NCBI GenBank assembly: GCA_016210985.1
Contig: JACQTD010000111.1
Span: 1 to 45,452 of the forward strand
DNA from: Acidobacteriota bacterium
GTDB taxonomy: Bacteria > Acidobacteriota > Blastocatellia > HR10 > JACQTD01
Reading direction: 5' to 3'
DNA: 45,452 nucleotides
A program made the position numbers and the translations under genes. Shown in pieces: positions 3,701 through 15,139 of this stretch (positions within the stretch are counted from its first letter, which is position 1; every line of letters starts with the position of its first letter). The notes below the pieces were generated by a model. The model made no database searches. It saw only the letters and a program-made list of their open reading frames with translations, and was not told the origin of the DNA.

Positions 3701-3877
3701 TCACGGCTGGACACAGGATACGCGCAGGCAGACGTTGCTCGCACCTGCCTGCACCCCTGGCTGTCCATCCGGCGTTGTGCAGTTACAGATGATTTGCGGA
3801 GCTGGGGGACATTGTTGCTGAAATGACACCGAGAACAAGAGAAGGAGCACGGGAAATACCAAGATCTTCACCTTCAT
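3701..3877 (-). CDS. Small exported cysteine-rich peptide (58 aa)
   Basis: The ATG at 3877 is preceded by GGAGG 5 nt upstream (3883-3887 on the complement). MKVKILVFPVLLLLFSVSF is a classic signal peptide. The roughly 38-aa mature part carries 5 Cys (QQCPPAPQIICNCTTPDGQPGVQAGASNVCLRVSCVQP). It sits in a lower-GC patch. Confidence 0.4.
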   Translation of the reverse strand: MKVKILVFPVLLLLFSVSFQQQCPPAPQIICNCTTPDGQPGVQAGASNVCLRVSCVQP

Positions 3878-4125
3878 TATTTCCTCCTTTTTGCACTGCC
3901 CTGTCACTACGAATTCTTACTTGGCTACGATGGAGCAGCTCGTGATGCTGCCAACAGTTGACAAGCCGCTTCACCACAGAGTGTTGCAAGAACCGTGCCA
4001 AGAGGAAGGACTCCACAGGGTCTAAGACTTTCCACTACTTCACAATAACTATGGACCTTGAGTCTGCAGGACGGGACAAAAATCGTGGAATTTTTTCCTG
4101 CTACCTAAGCCAACAACGACGATCG

Positions 4126-4180
4126 TGGGTACACCCGAGGCGATTCGAAACCGCCTTGGGCGGAACCTTTTGCTCCGGAG
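4126..4180. repeat. Degenerate third copy of the tRNA-Arg 3'-half / att repeat (integration scar or pseudo-tRNA piece)
   Basis: TGGGTACACCCGAGGCGATTCGAA has 2 mismatches in 24 against the att repeat. A roughly 9-nt insertion follows, then ACCTTTTGCTCCGGAG with 1 mismatch in 16. Weak tRNA-like similarity (GTAGCT) may extend to about 4224 on the complement, but no cloverleaf folds. Confidence 0.6.
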
Positions 4181-4331
4181 TCGAAGTCGGGGGAGCAATG
4201 GGCCCAATCCGGTACAGCTACCCAAAATGAAACCAGGTCAACAGCAGTTCGTGGAGTGTACGAGAGTTTTGGGTTTGTCTTTTTGGAAAAGGTCTCTAAG
4301 AGTGGCGAGAAGGAAAGCAGGGGCTGGCTGG

Positions 4332-4378
4332 ATTGGTACGCCCGAGGCGATTCGAACGCCTGACCTTTGGCTCCGGAG
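4332..4378. repeat. Distal att direct repeat (47 bp, identical to 12444-12490)
   Basis: ATTGGTACGCCCGAGGCGATTCGAACGCCTGACCTTTGGCTCCGGAG matches 12444-12490 base for base. The flanking bases differ on both sides. Confidence 0.9.
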
Positions 4379-4560: not shown

Positions 4561-5070
4561 CTACGGGGTCAGGATGCCAAGAATCTTGTAAGTTTCAGAC
4601 TCAGACTTTTTGCCATCGATGCTCACGGGCCAAAATAACTTGGCCTTGTCACCCTTAAACTCTGCCTGTATCTCATTCACTAACGGCATCCGGCAGCTTC
4701 GACGATTGATGAAGTCCCCTCTGGGTGCGTATTTGCTCTCGCAATTCACGATTACGAGACGTCCATCTGGCAGTCTGAGCGTAAACGTGGCACCACGGAC
4801 GTCGTACGATACCTGTACGGGAGGCATTGCTGAGCCGGTTGTCGTAGATGTGGCGGTGCCGGTTGCCGGATTCCCCGTGCCAAAAACACTCGCACTCGAC
4901 GTCGAGCGCAATAACAGATGTCCCGGCACGACGTACGAATAATTCTGGTCGCTAGTCTGCCGATCAACAATTACTACGTTCAGTTTCTGTGCCTCGGTGA
5001 CGGTTGCGATCCCAAAGAGGCAGAACACTAGGCCAAACGATGCGATTCTCATTGGTACATGCAGAAACAT
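4561..5070 (-). CDS. Exported protein A of element cargo operon (169 aa), no recognisable family
   Basis: The ATG at 5070 has GGAGG on the complement at 5076-5080. The signal peptide is MFLHVPMRIASFGLVFCLFGIATVTEAQ. The mature part has a Thr/Ser/Gly-rich linker followed by a Cys-containing domain. Confidence 0.6.
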   Translation of the reverse strand: MFLHVPMRIASFGLVFCLFGIATVTEAQKLNVVIVDRQTSDQNYSYVVPGHLLLRSTSSASVFGTGNPATGTATSTTTGSAMPPVQVSYDVRGATFTLRLPDGRLVIVNCESKYAPRGDFINRRSCRMPLVNEIQAEFKGDKAKLFWPVSIDGKKSESETYKILGILTP

Positions 5071-5107
5071 ACAAGCCTCCTTAGTGGACTGCCGTCGATG
5101 TTTCGCG

Positions 5108-5767
5108 TTATTCTGCTTCGGCCTTCTCCCATTTCGCAACGAACTCTGCCAGTACCTCATAAACCATCGATTTGATGTTATCAGTTGTTTCTTGTAGAGA
5201 GTAATTCACCAGTAATGTGGTCTTCCCTGCTAGGTTGAGAGTGCCCGGAACGGGTTTGACGATTTGGCCAGTTCGAAAACGAGCCGTCATGTAAGTGTAC
5301 AGCTCTACAGAAATAGACTGCGCCCCTGACGAAGAACGCGACGTTCCACTAATATGCAGGACAAGAGCCGCCTCGGGCTCGATCGCAAAACGATCAGGGA
5401 AATGGTCGCGGATTACCTGCGCGGCGGCATATTGTAATCCCGATGAGGAATCAAAATTCTCAATCAATACCTTTGTCGAAAAACGGTTTGGTGTGCCTGA
5501 GAGTCCAGTCACCATCAATGACCGCGCAAGCCCCCAAGCACTGTCTGCCCCTAGCTTAGCGGCTTCCTCCATCAGCCCGGCGCATGGATCCTTTTTCGCA
5601 CTGTCGGGAATTCTTTTCGGGCGGCCCGTTTGCGCATTTCCAGGTTGTGCAGATCCTAATGCAGCCGTAAGTACACTTGATTGCTGTGCCTCGGTGACGG
5701 TAACCGTCCCGAAAAAGCAGAGGGCGAGGCTAAGCCACATGATACTCATTCGTACTTTCAAAAACAT
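5108..5767 (-). CDS. Exported protein B of element cargo operon (219 aa), no recognisable family
   Basis: The ATG at 5767 has GAGG upstream. The signal peptide MFLKVRMSIMWLSLALCFFGTVTVTEAQ is near-identical to that of protein A. An identical 18-nt stretch (5684-5701 = 4987-5004) encodes TVTEAQ. Confidence 0.6.
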   Translation of the reverse strand: MFLKVRMSIMWLSLALCFFGTVTVTEAQQSSVLTAALGSAQPGNAQTGRPKRIPDSAKKDPCAGLMEEAAKLGADSAWGLARSLMVTGLSGTPNRFSTKVLIENFDSSSGLQYAAAQVIRDHFPDRFAIEPEAALVLHISGTSRSSSGAQSISVELYTYMTARFRTGQIVKPVPGTLNLAGKTTLLVNYSLQETTDNIKSMVYEVLAEFVAKWEKAEAE

Positions 5768-5838
5768 ATGGGCCTCATGGGTGTATTGAGTCGAGAAGAT
5801 CAACAATGCTGGCGAACTTCCTCGTGACACCGGACACT

Positions 5839-6228
5839 CTATGGCCGTGGTTCGTAGGGGGTCTCGTCGAAATCCTCTAGTCCCTCAAATAGTTCCACGT
5901 ATGCAACGTCCCCAACACATTGAATATACTTGGCACTGATGACGTCACGGAACCACTCTGCTCGGTGACCAAATCCCTGGGCGACGAAATCTTGTTGTCC
6001 ACACATGACAACATATTCGCGTCGGGTAATTCGGTCGCGCAAGAAAACCAGGGTCGCATTTCGGGGGAGTAGTTCTTGACGATACTGCTCTTCGACAAAA
6101 TCATTGAACCGCTCCTGAGGTAGTACCTCCCACCGAGCCTTGAAGGGAACTAACCTTGGTACTAAGACCACCAGCACGAGCGTTCCAACTATTACGATTA
6201 GCAGCAAACGATACCCCCGCCACGTCAC
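5839..6228 (-). CDS. N-terminally membrane-anchored protein C, first gene of the cargo operon (129 aa)
   Basis: The GTG at 6228 has GAGGGAG 5-6 nt upstream. One TM helix (YRLLLIVIVGTLVLVVLVP) is followed by a roughly 95-aa soluble domain. No family is recognised. Confidence 0.5.
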   Translation of the reverse strand: MTWRGYRLLLIVIVGTLVLVVLVPRLVPFKARWEVLPQERFNDFVEEQYRQELLPRNATLVFLRDRITRREYVVMCGQQDFVAQGFGHRAEWFRDVISAKYIQCVGDVAYVELFEGLEDFDETPYEPRP

Positions 6229-6554
6229 CGTACTCCCTCGCTAGGTCACATAGGTTTAGGACTATACCCTGCTTACACGCGCTATAAGACATCAGTCAGA
6301 GGAGCTTCACGAATAAGTCTTTTCCCCAAATCTCTCGCTGAACTTCGAGTTGGGAAAGCCGTCGAGAGATTCTGAAAAACACTCGTTGAAGCAGACTGCT
6401 GACTTGGACATTCTAACGCCGCATCGTTCGCCGTACAATCCTCTGGTTCGCGTAGAGTCGGTTAGGCCAACCGGATCGAAGGCGCTTTCATCTACCCGTC
6501 GGCGCCGCCGCGACCCAATCTTCCAGACGGGACGAGCCTTGACGGGAGGCGTGT

Positions 6555-7433
6555 ATGACCAGCAAAAAAGGGAAATCTATTAGCTTCGACCTACCCCACG
6601 ATCCAACCGGGTCCGTTATTATGAGGATCTCGGTGAACCCGCAAGGGCTGGTTGACTCGATAGCCCACTTTATCTCGGACCTGGCGCCCACTAGAGCCTC
6701 GGAATCGAAGAGTCGCAACGCCTCCGCTTTTCGCGAGTCTCTGAAGAAGCGTTCACTTCCATCCGGGGACAAGTGGCCTGTGCCACCAGATGCCGTTGCA
6801 GCATCAATGATACAGTTGCTTCCGGTGGTTATGTCGCGGGCATTCGGGATAGCCCGAGACCTCGCCATTACCGGGATTATCGAGAAGAGTGAACCTTGCA
6901 AGCTCTGGCAAGATCCCAACCAACTGCAGAAACTCTGTCGTACCGGAGCCACACTCATGCTAAGGAGCTTCGGGCTGGTGCCCATTAAGTTGACACATGA
7001 GCAGATTCAGAGATGTCTGGAGGATGCCCTAAAGCAGTTACGGTACATCCAGGGTGAGCGTATGCGCGGAGAACGAATCCATACGGAACGATCTGCCAAT
7101 ACAAAAGAGAAGATTGGGGATTCGAGACGAGGCAAGAAACATTCGCCGGAAACGAAATCCAAGCTGAAACTGAAACGTCGGATTCAGCCACCGCCGAGTG
7201 AAGCGACCAAGGTCAAGATTGCAGTAAGCCAAAGAGGCAACCAGAACCGATTCGGTCGAGGAAAGCGACGGAACTTATTCGACGAGTTATCGCAATATAA
7301 CGATCCTGAGGCAAAGCGTTTCGCGTTAGAGCACGAAAATGAGCTCCGAGCCTGGCCATCAGGTGGATCAGGAAGTGGCCCCCAAAACGTCCCGTTCGAT
7401 GAAAACCGCCACGGCAAAGATCCTGAAGACTGA
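6555..7433 (+). CDS. NUMOD3-repeat DNA-binding protein with unrecognised N-terminal domain; no nuclease motif seen
   Basis: The ATG at 6555 has GGAGG 5 nt upstream. Three NUMOD3-like units are present (HTERSANTKEKIGDSRRG, KKHSPETKSKLKLKR, PPSEATKVKIAVSQRGNQN). I found no GIY-YIG, HNH or LAGLIDADG signature in the first roughly 180 aa. Confidence 0.6.
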   Translation: MTSKKGKSISFDLPHDPTGSVIMRISVNPQGLVDSIAHFISDLAPTRASESKSRNASAFRESLKKRSLPSGDKWPVPPDAVAASMIQLLPVVMSRAFGIARDLAITGIIEKSEPCKLWQDPNQLQKLCRTGATLMLRSFGLVPIKLTHEQIQRCLEDALKQLRYIQGERMRGERIHTERSANTKEKIGDSRRGKKHSPETKSKLKLKRRIQPPPSEATKVKIAVSQRGNQNRFGRGKRRNLFDELSQYNDPEAKRFALEHENELRAWPSGGSGSGPQNVPFDENRHGKDPED

Positions 7434-7617: not shown

Positions 7618-7836
7618 ATGCAAACTTCGAACACTGATGGCAAAGTCTTCATTTCGGTCAAAGAGGCGGCGGGGCGCATGAGCGTGAGTGAGCGCAGTGT
7701 GAGAGAAGCCTTGCGGTCCGGTCGTCTGAAGGCAGGGCGATTCGGTCGCCGAGTCCTTCTTCGTTGGCGAGATGTCGAGGAGCTGATTGAGGGCCCCGAG
7801 GGCGACACCAATGAGGACCGCAGCGATGCAGCATAG
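7618..7836 (+). CDS. xis: Excisionase / AlpA-like helix-turn-helix DNA-binding protein
   Basis: VSVKEAAGRMSVSERSVREALRSGRLKAGRFGRRVLLRWRDVEELI fits the excisionase-family HTH pattern. GAGGTG lies 7 nt upstream of the ATG. Its stop overlaps the primase start. Confidence 0.7.
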   Translation: MQTSNTDGKVFISVKEAAGRMSVSERSVREALRSGRLKAGRFGRRVLLRWRDVEELIEGPEGDTNEDRSDAA

Positions 7837-10321
7837 CCCCACTCGGGTTTCGGTTGACACTATCTTGAACCGGCTCGAAGGGGTAAAGGAATCTGCCTCT
7901 GGTTGGCGGGCGCTGTGTCCCGCACACGAGGACAGGAATCCAAGCCTGAGCCTGAGAGTGGGAGGAGGTGGTCGGCTCCTCCTGAAATGCCACGCGCAAT
8001 GCTCCTTGGAGAGCGTAGTGGCCGCGCTCGGCCTCACAGTGAATGACCTCTTTCCGCTGAACGGGAACGGGGCACGGCCCGGCCGGAGACAGCGGACGGA
8101 GATCGGCCGGGAGTTCTCGCCGGTGGCTGAAGACGCCAATCTCAAGAATGAGGCGCGTAAGAGGGCGAAGGTGCTCTGGCAAGGTGCCAGCCCCGCCCCG
8201 AACGACCATGCTTATTTGCTCCGGAAAGGCATCAAGGCCCACGGACTACGCCTGAATGATGGGAGGCTCGTGATCCCGCTGCTCGACGGTGAAGAAATTC
8301 AGAGCCTGCAATTCATTGGGCTAGACGGTGAGAAACGATTCCTCACGGGCGGGCGGATAACGGGCTGCTATTTCCCCATCGGCAAACCGGACGGCTCGTT
8401 GTGCATCGCTGAGGGTTATGCCACGGGTGCAAGCATCTATGAGGCTACGGGCTGCGCGGTGGCTGTGGCCTTCACCGCTGGGAATCTGCTGCCGGTGGCA
8501 CAGGCGCTGCGAGTGAAGTTCTCAGACTTGCGTCTAATAGTCTGCGCTGATGATGATGCCAAGAAGCCGGGAAATCTAGGACTAACGAAAGCTCGCGAAG
8601 CGGCGCTGGCAGTGGCCGGACTGTTGGCCATCCCCGACTTCGGCGATAACAGGCCGGAACATGCAACCGACTTCAACGACCTGCACTTGCACGCCGGACT
8701 TGAGGCGGTGCGCGGTTGTATCGAGAGGGCCCCGGCTTTGGAATCCAACGTAAGTCATGACGGTGCCTCATGGCCAGATCCGACACCATTCCAGGCCCCA
8801 GTGAAGCTCCCAACGTTTCCGGTTGAGGCGCTGCCCGAGCCGCTGCGCACTATGGTTATTGACGTGGCGTTAACGCGTCAAGTGCCGGTGGATCTTCCTG
8901 CCATGCTTGCCCTATCCGCAACGGCTTTAGTCGCCAGCGGTTCGTTTGAGATTCGATTGAATGACGCTCATAGTGAACCACTGAACATTTACACACTTAC
9001 GGCCCTTCCTTCTGGCGAGCGAAAGAGTGGAACTTTCAGGGATATGGTCGCGCCCCTTGAGAGAGCTGAAAAGGAGATGATCGAAGAGGCCGAGCCCATA
9101 ATTGCGGAAGCCTCACAGCTCAGGGCCATTGAAGATGCCAGGCTCAAGAATCTACGTGACAAGGCGGCAAAGACAAGCGACTCTGCGGTGAGACTTCAGG
9201 CGACCGAAGATGCGGTCAAGCTGGCGCAGAGCTTGACACCAGTTTCAGCTTTGCCGCGGCTTTTAACCGACGACGTGACACCGGAACGGCTAGCCGGGCT
9301 ACTTTTCGAGCAGAACGGGCGGATGGGACTCTTCAGCGCAGAAGGCGGAATTTTTGAAATCATCAACGGCCGGTATAGCAAGAACGGTAAGCCGAATGTG
9401 GAAGTTCTTATCAAAGGCCACGCGGGGGACACGCTTATCGTCGATCGAATGGGGCGGGCCGAGCACGTTGAACGTCCAGCACTGACGATCGGACTTAGCC
9501 CCCAACCGTGGGTTGTCGAAGACCTGGGGAATAACAAGACGTTTCGGGGAAGAGGGCTCCTGAACCGATTTCTCTATTCCTTCCCGGAAAGCCTTGTGGG
9601 CACTCGCGAGTACAAAGACATCGCCGTTAACAGGACCGCACGTGACGCGTACGGGCAAGCGATTCGGGAATTAATGACACTCACCCTGGCCGTGAGACTG
9701 GAGGATCGGCCCGCGACTTTGTGCCTGTCAACGGATGCTTCGCTGCTTTGGCGAGTGTACGCGGGTGAAATCGAGCGCGCGCAAGCGCCGGGCAAGCCGC
9801 TTTCAGGCATCTCAGGCTGGGCGTCCAAACTCGCGGGAGCGGTTGCGAGGATTGCCGGTGGTTTTCATTTGATCGAACATCGGCATGGTGATCCCGCGAG
9901 AGTGGTGATCACAACCGAAGTCATTCTGAATGCGTGGGCGGTTGGTGACTATCTCAAACAGCACGCACTCGCGGCCTTTTCGATGATGGGGGCAACACCT
10001 GACGTAGCCCTAGCCATGGCGGTTCTCAGGTGGATTCAACGCCGATCGCTAAAGGAATTCAGTCTTCGAGACTCCCATCGAGCACATCAAGGTGTTAACC
10101 GGGTTGACGAACTGCGGATAGCGCTCGAAGTCCTGGAGGAGAGACACTACCTCAGAGCGAAGCCCTTGCCCTCCCGAGAGGGCGCTGGACAACCACCTAG
10201 CCCTATGTGGGAAGTCAACCCGCGATTCCTTTCCAGGAATTCTAGGAGCACAACGGAACGAGGCGATTCTGTCATTTCTGTCAATTCTGTCTATAGGGTA
10301 GGAAATGAAATCTCCGCTTGA
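7826..10321 (+). CDS. Replication protein: primase zinc-ribbon + TOPRIM + DUF3987-like C-terminal domain
   Basis: The zinc motif is WRALCPAHEDRNPSLSL...LLLKCHAQC. The TOPRIM block is LCIAEGYATGASIYEATGCAVAVAF...LIVCADDD. The long C-terminal region resembles DUF3987/YfjI-type proteins. The start at 7826 (MQHSPTRV) overlaps the xis stop. Confidence 0.8.
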   Translation: MQHSPTRVSVDTILNRLEGVKESASGWRALCPAHEDRNPSLSLRVGGGGRLLLKCHAQCSLESVVAALGLTVNDLFPLNGNGARPGRRQRTEIGREFSPVAEDANLKNEARKRAKVLWQGASPAPNDHAYLLRKGIKAHGLRLNDGRLVIPLLDGEEIQSLQFIGLDGEKRFLTGGRITGCYFPIGKPDGSLCIAEGYATGASIYEATGCAVAVAFTAGNLLPVAQALRVKFSDLRLIVCADDDAKKPGNLGLTKAREAALAVAGLLAIPDFGDNRPEHATDFNDLHLHAGLEAVRGCIERAPALESNVSHDGASWPDPTPFQAPVKLPTFPVEALPEPLRTMVIDVALTRQVPVDLPAMLALSATALVASGSFEIRLNDAHSEPLNIYTLTALPSGERKSGTFRDMVAPLERAEKEMIEEAEPIIAEASQLRAIEDARLKNLRDKAAKTSDSAVRLQATEDAVKLAQSLTPVSALPRLLTDDVTPERLAGLLFEQNGRMGLFSAEGGIFEIINGRYSKNGKPNVEVLIKGHAGDTLIVDRMGRAEHVERPALTIGLSPQPWVVEDLGNNKTFRGRGLLNRFLYSFPESLVGTREYKDIAVNRTARDAYGQAIRELMTLTLAVRLEDRPATLCLSTDASLLWRVYAGEIERAQAPGKPLSGISGWASKLAGAVARIAGGFHLIEHRHGDPARVVITTEVILNAWAVGDYLKQHALAAFSMMGATPDVALAMAVLRWIQRRSLKEFSLRDSHRAHQGVNRVDELRIALEVLEERHYLRAKPLPSREGAGQPPSPMWEVNPRFLSRNSRSTTERGDSVISVNSVYRVGNEISA

Positions 10322-11025: not shown

Positions 11026-11054
11026 TTGAGATTGTACATGTTTTCGTGTACATT
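11026..11054 (+). promoter_or_regulatory. Candidate promoter (TTGAGA-N17-TACATT) with two TGTACAT operator-like repeats
   Basis: TTGAGA lies at 11026-11031 and TACATT at 11049-11054. TGTACAT occurs at 11033-11039 and 11047-11053; its TGTACA core is self-complementary. The site is immediately upstream of the HTH-int bicistron. Confidence 0.3.
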
Positions 11055-11061
11055 AGTCGGT

Positions 11062-11307
11062 GTGGATCTAAAGAAGGCACGTGAACGGTTCGGAGTCAGC
11101 CTCGCGGAATTAGCCTACGGTTCGGGGTTAACCAAGTCTCTGCTTGCGGCTGTCGAGCGTGGTCGGTTCCGCCTTTCGCCGGACAAGGAAACTAAGATCA
11201 GGATTGCCCTGGAGCTGATCCGCGAGCATAAACGAGCTTGGAGGGAGATTCCTAAGCGGCTCGCCCGTGAGTTACGTGAGAAGCATAAGGCTGGAGGATT
11301 CAGATGA
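11062..11307 (+). CDS. XRE/Cro-like helix-turn-helix regulator, translationally coupled to the integrase
   Basis: DLKKARERFGVSLAELAYGSGLTKSLLAAVERG is an XRE-type HTH. The start is uncertain (GTG 11062, ATG 11038 or TTG 11026). Its stop overlaps the integrase ATG (ATGA at 11304-11307). Confidence 0.6.
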   Translation: MDLKKARERFGVSLAELAYGSGLTKSLLAAVERGRFRLSPDKETKIRIALELIREHKRAWREIPKRLARELREKHKAGGFR

Positions 11308-12422
11308 TTTACAAGCGGAGTGGTGTCTGGTGGACGCGGTTTCAGATTAACGGGGTACGGTATCACCTCTCGATCCGTGAGGCAGTGAATCGGCGAAAGG
11401 CGCAGAAGGCGGAGGATCGGCTAAAGGGCGAGCTGTTGGCAGGCCGATTTGAGATTCTCGATCAGCGCTCTGATCTCACCTTCAAGGTGCTCGCGAGTCG
11501 GTTCATGCAGTGGTCGAAAGACAACCGCCGGAGCTGGCGGAGCGATCAGTCGAGGATTAAGCCGCTGGAGGAATTCTTCAGCGAGCGGGGGCTCCGGGAG
11601 ATTTCCCCCATTTTGATCGAGAAGTTCAAGAACGAGCGGCGCCAGTCCATGAGACGGGGAAAAAAGCCGCGCTGTGCCTCGACGGTAAACAGGGAACTGG
11701 CCTTGCTGCGGCGCATCTTCAACCTCGCCATTCAAAACAAATGGCTGAGGGTAAACCCGGTTTCAGCCGTGAAGTTTCTTCCCGAAAGCCGGGGCCGCGA
11801 GCGCTACTTGACGGTCGAGGAAGAGCGGCGGCTTCTGGCCGTATGCAACCTGCCGGACCTCGCCTACCTCAAGCCGGTGGTCATCTTGGCGCTCAATACG
11901 GGTATGAGAAAGGGCGAACTGCTGAACCTAACTTGGGACCGTGTGAACCTGGAAGCCGGCGAGATTCTCGTCACTCAAACCAAGTCGGGCCAGGATCGGA
12001 CGATTCCCATAAGCCCGCTTGTGGCCGGCGAACTCGCGAAGCTCCGGGACACGGCTGACTCGGAGTTTATCTTCGCCAACCCGCTCACGGGAGATCGGTA
12101 CTCGGACCTCAAGAGCGTCTTCCCTCGCGCATGCAGGAAGGCGGGCATCTCCGGCGTGGTGTTCCACACGCTGCGGCATACGGCCGCGAGCCGGATGGTC
12201 GCGTCGGGGATGGACCTCCGTACCGTTCAGGAAATTCTCGGACATACCGAGATCGCCACGACCCAGCGCTATCTACACGCCATGCCCGAGCGCAAGACGG
12301 CGGCCGTTCAGGCACTCGCCCGGTACACCGAAGAAGCAATGATCCTGGAGCCTGAAAGCACCGATTTTGACAAGCAAGTGGCCCAAGAGTGGCCCAAACT
12401 CAAAGTGGTGGCCCAAGCGTGA
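11304..12422 (+). CDS. int: Tyrosine recombinase / phage-type integrase
   Basis: GGAGG lies upstream. The C-terminal catalytic region reads VVFHTLRHTAASRMVASGMDLRTVQEILGHTEIATTQRYLH (R...HxxR...Y). The gene ends 24 nt from the 3' end of tRNA-Arg. Confidence 0.9.
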   Translation: MIYKRSGVWWTRFQINGVRYHLSIREAVNRRKAQKAEDRLKGELLAGRFEILDQRSDLTFKVLASRFMQWSKDNRRSWRSDQSRIKPLEEFFSERGLREISPILIEKFKNERRQSMRRGKKPRCASTVNRELALLRRIFNLAIQNKWLRVNPVSAVKFLPESRGRERYLTVEEERRLLAVCNLPDLAYLKPVVILALNTGMRKGELLNLTWDRVNLEAGEILVTQTKSGQDRTIPISPLVAGELAKLRDTADSEFIFANPLTGDRYSDLKSVFPRACRKAGISGVVFHTLRHTAASRMVASGMDLRTVQEILGHTEIATTQRYLHAMPERKTAAVQALARYTEEAMILEPESTDFDKQVAQEWPKLKVVAQA

Positions 12423-12443: not shown

Positions 12444-12522
<79 letters not shown>

Positions 12523-15066: not shown

Positions 15067-15139
15067 TGCGCCCGAGAGGATTCGAACCTCCAACCTACGG
15101 ATCCGAAGTCCGTTGCTCTGTCCGTTGAGCTACGGGCGC
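15067..15139 (-). tRNA. tRNA-Arg (anticodon UCG), CCA not encoded
   Basis: The complement reads GCGCCCG TA GCTC AACGGACA GAGC A ACGGA CTTCGGA TCCGT AGGTT GGAGG TTCGAAT CCTCT CGGGCGC A. It is 73 nt and forms a clean cloverleaf. Confidence 0.9.

Follow-up and report, generated by a model that had tools for sequence, protein, structure and literature searches.

Positions 4561-6228 of contig JACQTD010000111.1, a stretch of 45,452 nt from an Acidobacteriota bacterium of the Blastocatellia (assembly GCA_016210985.1) that was analyzed at its full length and is called the window here, hold three genes, A, B and C, which occupy the cargo end of a small integrative element. A reading made from the letters of the DNA, without database searches (the sequence-only reading), had put them forward as a candidate for an undescribed multi-gene system located in the cell envelope. 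We consider it probable instead that the block is a mosaic, in which three evolutionarily independent genes for envelope proteins were brought together by chance at one end of the element. That integrated elements carry accessory envelope genes at their edges is already known, and shared leaders on unrelated proteins have a precedent. What is new is the sizeable, phylum-specific family to which C belongs, which has no structural neighbor, and the rare family of B, which has a predicted LptE/TraT-like core minus the lipid anchor.

The element is a genomic island of 8.1 kb, bounded by exact 45-nt copies of the 3' part of a minus-strand tRNA-Arg(CCG) gene found with ARAGORN, which is the integration target (Table 1). 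It shows the two marks of a tRNA-integrated genomic island, a tyrosine integrase beside the tRNA gene (PF00589, E 1.7e-36) and a repeat of the 3' part of the tRNA at the far end, and A, B and C are placed at the end distant from the integrase. The three genes have a G+C content of 0.51-0.52, against about 0.60 for the flanking host DNA, in which long open reading frames (ORFs) have a third-position G+C (GC3) of 0.68. The sequence-only reading had placed the genes at the cargo end of a tRNA-Arg element and had judged them lower in G+C than the host; the repeat, the integrase, the Toprim/DUF3987 primase-helicase and the base composition all agree with it.

Recurrence of the three genes together was the preset test of the proposed three-gene system. 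Relatives of C number 109 in a set of one genome per GTDB species, and around the best 80 of these we surveyed 8 kb on either side, which gave 9,960 ORFs in 1.10 Mb. A hidden Markov model (HMM) of the B family had no match among these ORFs, and neither had A. Seen from the side of B, the neighbors of ten B homologues all differ, and they are unrelated to each other and to A or C. Because the families co-occur nowhere else that was searched, A-B-C is not a conserved operon or system, and the claim of a three-gene system does not survive the test. One ORF lying just upstream of a C homologue (L066, 7461-7880) matched B in phmmer at E 0.007; it was not recovered by the B profile and was treated as a chance match. 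Conserved neighbors of B homologues, a 165-aa membrane protein in locus L084 and proteins of 189 and 234 aa in L090, were also rejected as partners, as they have no similarity to one another and none to A.

Some of the loci of B homologues deserve description. One homologue adjoins an AAA_25 gene and a 68-aa gene (L092, 8230-10675), another a BrnT/BrnA toxin-antitoxin pair (L093, 10001-12083), and a third a GmrSD_C gene, its locus also having an RHS-repeat gene at a greater distance (L094, 8998-10660). These three neighborhoods look like variable or defense-island regions, with no common partner gene.

The individual genes are real. Each has a Shine-Dalgarno motif, GAGGGAG 4 nt 5' of the GTG start of A, GAGG 5 nt 5' of the ATG of B and AAGGAGG 5 nt 5' of the ATG of C, so that the earlier description of three co-directional ORFs with good ribosome-binding sites (RBSs) is confirmed by the ORF calls and by motifs read directly. 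The codon-position G+C of A is of the coding type, GC1 > GC3 > GC2 (0.68, 0.52 and 0.35). The intergenic gaps are 71 nt between A and B and 37 nt between B and C, and a scan of the block found no terminator-like site in either of them; the two terminator-like matches that it gave on the minus strand fall within genes C and B themselves, and chance would give as many. Co-transcription of A, B and C is plausible, given the short gaps and the absence of a terminator from them. Promoter and terminator scanning of the block gave nothing above chance, the divergent region upstream of A had no consensus sigma-70 site, and Rfam returned tRNA only. On the evidence of their sequences, A, B and C are taken as genuine genes for membrane or exported proteins, the call of export being based on hydropathy, on family alignments and on the low confidence of the AF2 models over residues 1-28.

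Pfam, NCBIfam, PHROGs and PADLOC contain no family for A, B or C. Weak matches to TgpA_N, DUF3931 and DUF6371 were far under the cut-offs, fell on hydrophobic segments and were rejected, and PADLOC-DB gave 0 families at E <= 1 for the three proteins and for the NUMOD3-like protein encoded divergently from A. The earlier statement that the genes are unrecognizable therefore stands for the curated libraries, and for A, which is an orphan, but not for C and B, both of which have homologues, B with a recognizable predicted core as well. Protein A has one very hydrophobic segment at about residues 8-27 (mean Kyte-Doolittle hydropathy of 2.84 in the 19-aa window from residue 9) together with a soluble, acidic portion (about 100 aa, isoelectric point 4.8) that contains two cysteines. 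Its sequence marks it as a lineage-specific orphan with a single putative membrane-spanning segment.

A duplicated cassette of RBS and signal peptide lies at the 5' ends of B and C. Near-identical signal peptides on unrelated mature parts had been noted from the sequence, and both the protein and the DNA comparisons bear this out. In BLASTP the two proteins align over residues 1-33 and no further (17/33 identical, E 5e-8), the mature parts giving no alignment. Of the 18-mer CTGTGCCTCGGTGACGGT there are just two copies, at 4987-5004 and 5684-5701, against 0 expected by chance; they lie at the cleavage site, within a direct repeat of 108 nt that is 71% identical. In a pairwise alignment the similarity begins about 21-23 nt upstream of each ATG, so that the RBS is included, runs through codon 28 (...TVTEAQ) and then disappears. 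Cleavage is predicted between TEA and QQ in B and between TEA and QK in C, after a signal peptide of about 27 aa. Hydropathy shows one N-terminal hydrophobic region in each protein and none further in, and an N-terminal hydrophobic segment also precedes the conserved domain in most relatives (C family, 76 of 78; B family, 40 of 51). The leader that B and C share is absent from the nearest C homologues, from the B homologues and from the other ORFs of the window, which argues that one of the adjacent genes copied the 5' end of the other locally. A shared or recombined export cassette had already been suggested, and the extent of the repeat agrees with it: judging from the DNA, a local duplication or recombination event copied about 108 nt, ending exactly at the predicted signal-peptidase site, by which one gene borrowed the export signal of the other.

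A direct precedent for leader sharing on a mobile element is provided by the Elp (OspE/F-like leader peptide) proteins of the Borrelia cp32 prophages, whose mature parts are unrelated and which have acquired a common leader and upstream region by recombination (PMC12018966). The Borrelia leaders are lipoprotein signals found across many plasmid paralogues, whereas the cassette of B and C involves a single pair of adjacent genes, a type-I signal peptide and a DNA identity of just 71%.

The family of C is large, with more than 827 clusters of homologues at 50-70% identity, all annotated as hypothetical and lacking a Pfam domain. The best 80 of the 109 loci are almost all from Acidobacteriota (Acidobacteriaceae, Bryobacterales and Vicinamibacterales), including the cultured Edaphobacter modestus DSM 18101. 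An AF2 model built with 78 homologues has a mean predicted local distance difference test score (pLDDT) of 82, with values of 93-97 over much of the domain, and an all-beta fold, in which two long hairpins come first and a smaller sheet after them. The family has two conserved cysteine pairs, one of which the window C retains (C110/C126). The other, a near-invariant Cys-x8-Cys pair present in at least 90% of members at a hairpin tip (about residues 55-80), is missing from the window C, where a stretch rich in serine, threonine and glycine replaces it; relaxed constraint or a changed specificity could account for the loss. A Foldseek search of the PDB with the C model gave a best E of 0.02 with template modeling (TM) scores of 0.10-0.16, and the viral models of BFVD gave nothing significant; in neither database did a match have an E below 0.02 or a TM-score above 0.3. 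The predicted product of C is an all-beta, Sec-exported protein with a disulfide, about 140 aa long (142 aa when mature), and its family is large and specific to Acidobacteriota.

Ten longer members of the family have no Pfam domain, except for one read-through ORF with Sel1 repeats. This 578-aa ORF (L063, 6648-8384) contains nine Sel1 repeats and ends in a C-family domain, which could reflect either a fusion or an artifact of read-through. The only locus among the 80 with two copies has two opposed C-family genes 1.6 kb apart (L024, 5809-6306 on the minus strand and 7947-8450 on the plus strand).

C-family genes occur singly, often flanked by non-homologous exported or membrane proteins in variable regions, and a part of them lie in islands of the same general type as that of the window. 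Mobility markers are enriched around C: the integrase ORFs number 22, spread over 18 of the 80 loci, and the tRNA genes 25, in 19 of them, where a general expectation for about 1.1 Mb, which is our own estimate and not a matched control, would be some 2-4 of the former and about 10 of the latter. Six loci have a tRNA no more than about 400 bp away from the C gene. An exact repeat of a tRNA fragment surrounds the C gene at a tRNA-Arg(TCT) in E. modestus (L044; 6 kb, with an integrase), at a tRNA-Val(GAC) (L054), at a tRNA-Val(CAC), again with an integrase (L057), and at a tRNA-Met (L064), and there is probably a further case bounded by attachment (att) sites at a tRNA-Met (L030), whose repeat is cut by the end of the locus. 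L015 and L030 share the layout of the window, with an integrase, a DUF3987 primase and C. The smallest case is at a tRNA-Arg(TCG) (L009), where an exact 52-nt repeat (7627-8573) encloses an interval of 870 bp with the C gene only. This one-gene mini-island is either what remains of a stripped-down island or a mobile cassette of minimal size, and its content suggests that the gene has been retained by selection. These observations support C alone as a recurrent cargo of tRNA-integrating islands with differing integrases and targets; recurrence in integrase/primase islands, which the sequence-only reading had raised for the whole block, holds for the C family but not for the three genes together.

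B proved to be less isolated than it seemed. A word-indexed search returned only the protein itself (hypothetical protein HY650_06190), and B could have been called an orphan; this was overturned by an exhaustive HMMER scan of 1.84 billion cluster representatives, which found 52 remote homologues with 22-39% identity. The family has a length of about 200 aa, one conserved cysteine and a conserved YRFAAAEVIRTxF motif, and the conserved core motifs are intact in the window B. A metagenome scan with a reduced alignment of the family gave one partial locus, the full alignment being too divergent for use. The AF2 model of B, built with 51 homologues, has a mean pLDDT of 84.5, above 90 from residue 60 on. 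The leader is followed by about 35 aa of disordered linker and by a first helix (63-85); next comes a core of five strands and one helix, in the order E95-102, H108-122, E127-129, E135-141 and a hairpin E149-166/E169-187 with 18 residues per arm, and a long C-terminal helix (191-218) closes the chain. Foldseek matched it in the PDB (E 4e-5 to 1e-3, probability 0.96-1.0) to Cj1090c, a Neisseria LptE-like protein, PelC, TraT decamers, LptE of several species and PqiC. About 200 columns are aligned with the TraT structures 9e2v, 9fs5 and 9fsm, with a probability of 1.0 to 9e2v and 9fs5. The assignment of the fold rests on the Foldseek probability and the order of secondary structures, and because the TM-scores are modest we take the likeness as a resemblance at the level of the fold. 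A sequence search of the PDB with the family profiles of B and C gave nothing better than E 0.4.

According to a published description, the TraT core has a five-stranded sheet with two helices on it, is most similar to LptE and carries a long hairpin in addition (bioRxiv 10.1101/2025.05.27.656304), and the model of B, which is a prediction only, likewise has an LptE-like core, helices on a five-stranded sheet and a long beta-hairpin. B further resembles TraT of the F-like plasmids in being an envelope protein of a mobile element and in its size (219 aa against 226 aa). The function of TraT requires its lipid anchor and helix alpha1 with the membrane helices (PMC11733297), and B differs on both counts. 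It has no lipobox (residues 14-17 are LALC), and a lipobox-like string is found in 3 of the 51 family members; past the signal peptide it has no hydrophobic 19-aa window and so lacks the two membrane helices. Pfam contains no model that B matches at E <= 1 and none that consistently fits B or its relatives, and the TraT model PF05818 is matched by none of the 51 members. The absence of a lipobox, of a later hydrophobic segment and of a consistent Pfam match means that B is not a member of the TraT, LptE or PelC families. Its best structural matches, LptE, PelC, PqiC and Cj1090c, are envelope proteins that face the periplasm and either plug a barrel or assemble into rings; all of them differ from B in being lipoproteins encoded with partner machinery (LptD, PelB, PqiAB), and B has no sequence similarity to them, nor is a partner gene of the LptD, PelB or PqiAB type present in the island or beside the B homologues. 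The model thus presents B as a putatively Sec-exported, soluble or otherwise tethered periplasmic protein with an LptE/PelC/TraT-like core, from a rare and divergent family.

The remaining features of the island and its surroundings are listed in Table 1. The 292-aa protein encoded divergently from A matches NUMOD3 at E 0.002 (18.3 bits, with a cut-off of 20.4), has a weak PHROG match to homing endonucleases and has no relatives among the ORFs of the 80 C-family loci. As the motif is below threshold and no relatives occur in those loci, the NUMOD3 label is tentative. A degenerate third copy of the 3' part of the tRNA, 150 bp beyond attL, suggests the scar of an older, decayed integration. The DNA near this scar is also lower in G+C and encodes, at 3701-3907 on the minus strand, a small Cys-rich exported peptide (MKVKILVFPVLLLLFSVSF...CPPAPQIICNCTTPDGQPG...) without an NCBIfam match. 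A second tRNA-Arg gene, with the anticodon TCG, lies at 15067-15139 on the minus strand, 2.5 kb from the occupied tRNA-Arg(CCG); a tRNA-Arg(TCG) is also the integration target of the C-only mini-island.

Table 1. Features of the tRNA-Arg island and its left border in the window.
Feature	Position	Strand	Evidence
Degenerate third copy of the tRNA-Arg 3' part	4128..4185		Repeat search
attL, exact 45-nt copy of the tRNA-Arg(CCG) 3' part, left end of island	4334..4378		Repeat search
Gene C, predicted exported protein of 169 aa	4561..5070	-	ORF call, hydropathy, family alignment
Cassette copy 1 (RBS and signal peptide), on gene C	4984..5091	-	Repeat search, alignment
Gene B, predicted exported protein of 219 aa	5108..5767	-	ORF call, hydropathy, family alignment
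Cassette copy 2 (RBS and signal peptide), on gene B	5681..5788	-	Repeat search, alignment
Gene A, 129-aa protein with one N-terminal membrane-spanning segment, GTG start	5839..6228	-	ORF call, hydropathy
Divergent intergenic region between A and the NUMOD3-like gene, presumed promoters	6229..6554		Inference
Gene for 292-aa protein with a single weak NUMOD3 motif	6555..7433	+	Pfam, below cut-off
Small HTH_17-type DNA-binding protein (excisionase/AlpA-like)	7618..7836	+	Domain match
Primase-helicase (zinc ribbon, Toprim, DUF3987), island replication protein	7787..10321	+	Domain match
HTH_3 regulator	11026..11307	+	Domain match
Tyrosine integrase	11304..12422	+	PF00589
tRNA-Arg(CCG), integration target (attR = 12446-12490)	12446..12522	-	ARAGORN, repeat search

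Under the mosaic reading that we favor, A, B and C would be transcribed jointly from the divergent region, and each product would act alone in the periplasm or envelope of the host of the island, in the manner of phage morons and lysogenic-conversion genes. The likeliest benefit would be protective, through masking or plugging of an envelope component or neutralization of an incoming toxin that acts in the periplasm, although a protective function of the cargo is, within this reading, a possibility to which we lean less than to its absence. Proteins with the LptE/TraT fold plug barrels, form rings or bind anionic oligosaccharides, and B might act by way of its core in a similar manner, binding an oligosaccharide, plugging an envelope component or forming rings; C might act by binding a conserved envelope target. 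Envelope morons and lysogenic-conversion genes of phages and prophages include the receptor-blocking lipoproteins Cor and Llp. The C family resembles them in consisting of single, self-contained genes for exported proteins, located at the att-proximal edge and exchangeable between elements. It differs in that there is no homology, that B and C are not lipoproteins, and that the carrier is a small integrase/primase island and not a full prophage. A bolder extension, which we regard as speculative and rather unlikely, is that the fold of the C family is new and that its members form a new class of periplasmic factors, each encoded by a single gene, that protect the host. Islands that target tRNAs would spread them among soil Acidobacteriota, and they would block some conserved receptor or channel of the envelope that is exploited by phages, conjugation or interbacterial toxins; B would be a soluble exclusion core of the TraT/LptE type, free of a lipid anchor.

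Several results weigh against the mosaic reading or its protective part. Neither PADLOC nor PHROGs links A, B or C to phage, plasmid or toxin resistance. The sole match of A among 5.8 billion proteins is A itself, in a search that was word-indexed only and that distant relatives could escape. In about 50 of the 80 C loci, integrases and tRNAs are both absent from the 8 kb on either side, the conservation of the C family is unusually high for a protein in an arms race, and the window C, having lost a cysteine pair, may be decaying. The TM-scores of B are low (0.2-0.3 by query, up to 0.45 by target, about 0.3 with TraT), and characterized proteins of the LptE/TraT-like fold are nearly all lipoproteins, whereas B has no lipobox.

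It is improbable to a high degree that A, B and C are one envelope exclusion system against phages or plasmids, made up of a membrane anchor and two periplasmic or outer-membrane components. The close spacing of co-directional genes with their own Shine-Dalgarno sites, the cargo position in an integrase/primase island and the resemblance of the predicted B core to the surface-exclusion protein TraT would all suit such a system, and a common signal peptide could equalize the export of B and C. It is contradicted by the orphan status of A, the lack of any B-family gene near the 80 C genes and of constant neighbors around B, by the absence of PADLOC matches, and by the lack in B of the lipid anchor and membrane helices that TraT needs for exclusion. 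Somewhat more credit, while still unlikely, may be given to the idea that B and C, and perhaps A, are orphan periplasmic immunity proteins against envelope-acting toxins of competitors (effectors of the type VI secretion system, contact-dependent inhibition or bacteriocins) that were collected by a recombinase-bearing element. It would be a sub-case of protective cargo and would explain why small, exported, partner-less and unrelated proteins stand side by side in an integrase island, why C genes often have non-homologous exported or membrane proteins beside them, and why RHS, GmrSD and toxin-antitoxin genes occur near B homologues. No known immunity family was matched by A, B or C, however, no cognate toxin gene was seen beside any homologue, although no search directed at toxins was made, and C, with its 50-70% identity across classes, is much more conserved than immunity proteins usually are. 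In Bacteroidales, the acquired interbacterial defense clusters (AID and rAID) are mobile arrays in which small immunity genes of unrelated kinds are associated with a recombinase (bioRxiv 10.1101/471110). The island of A, B and C resembles these arrays in having a recombinase, and differs in being from another phylum and in lacking both a link to a toxin and a known immunity family.

It is also rather improbable that the three genes are functionally unrelated and possibly decaying hitchhikers, fragments of captured host envelope genes without benefit. That A is an orphan, that the window C has lost its conserved cysteine pair, that the island adjoins an older, degraded att scar and that the cassette copies have diverged to 71% identity are all consistent with neglect, but the three ORFs are intact and keep their Shine-Dalgarno sites, the core motifs of B are preserved, and the C family is strongly conserved and kept even in the C-only mini-island. 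Hardly any credence can be given to C as a secreted pore-forming toxin of the aerolysin type, or another toxic effector, with immunity supplied by its neighbors. The idea derives from the non-significant top of the Foldseek list for C, in which long-hairpin proteins (FlgH, epsilon toxin, lysenin, aerolysin) appear, and from the Ser/Thr-rich hairpin tip. The aerolysin/FlgH lead was rejected, since at E 0.02 or worse and with the TM-scores given above none of these is a real structural match; the mature protein is shorter than most solved aerolysin-type toxins, and C loci contain no conserved adjoining immunity gene.

The main value of the analysis is negative, in that it removes the locus from the candidates for a multi-gene defense system. 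The B/C pair offers a clean bacterial case in which export competence was apparently gained by copying the RBS and signal peptide of a neighboring gene. The C family by itself is a reasonable target of modest priority. Acidobacteriota are a dominant phylum of soils, and the biology of their phages and mobile elements is almost unexplored; if the protective reading is true, the C family would give this phylum a first, accessible case of defense or immunity that is mobile and acts at the envelope.

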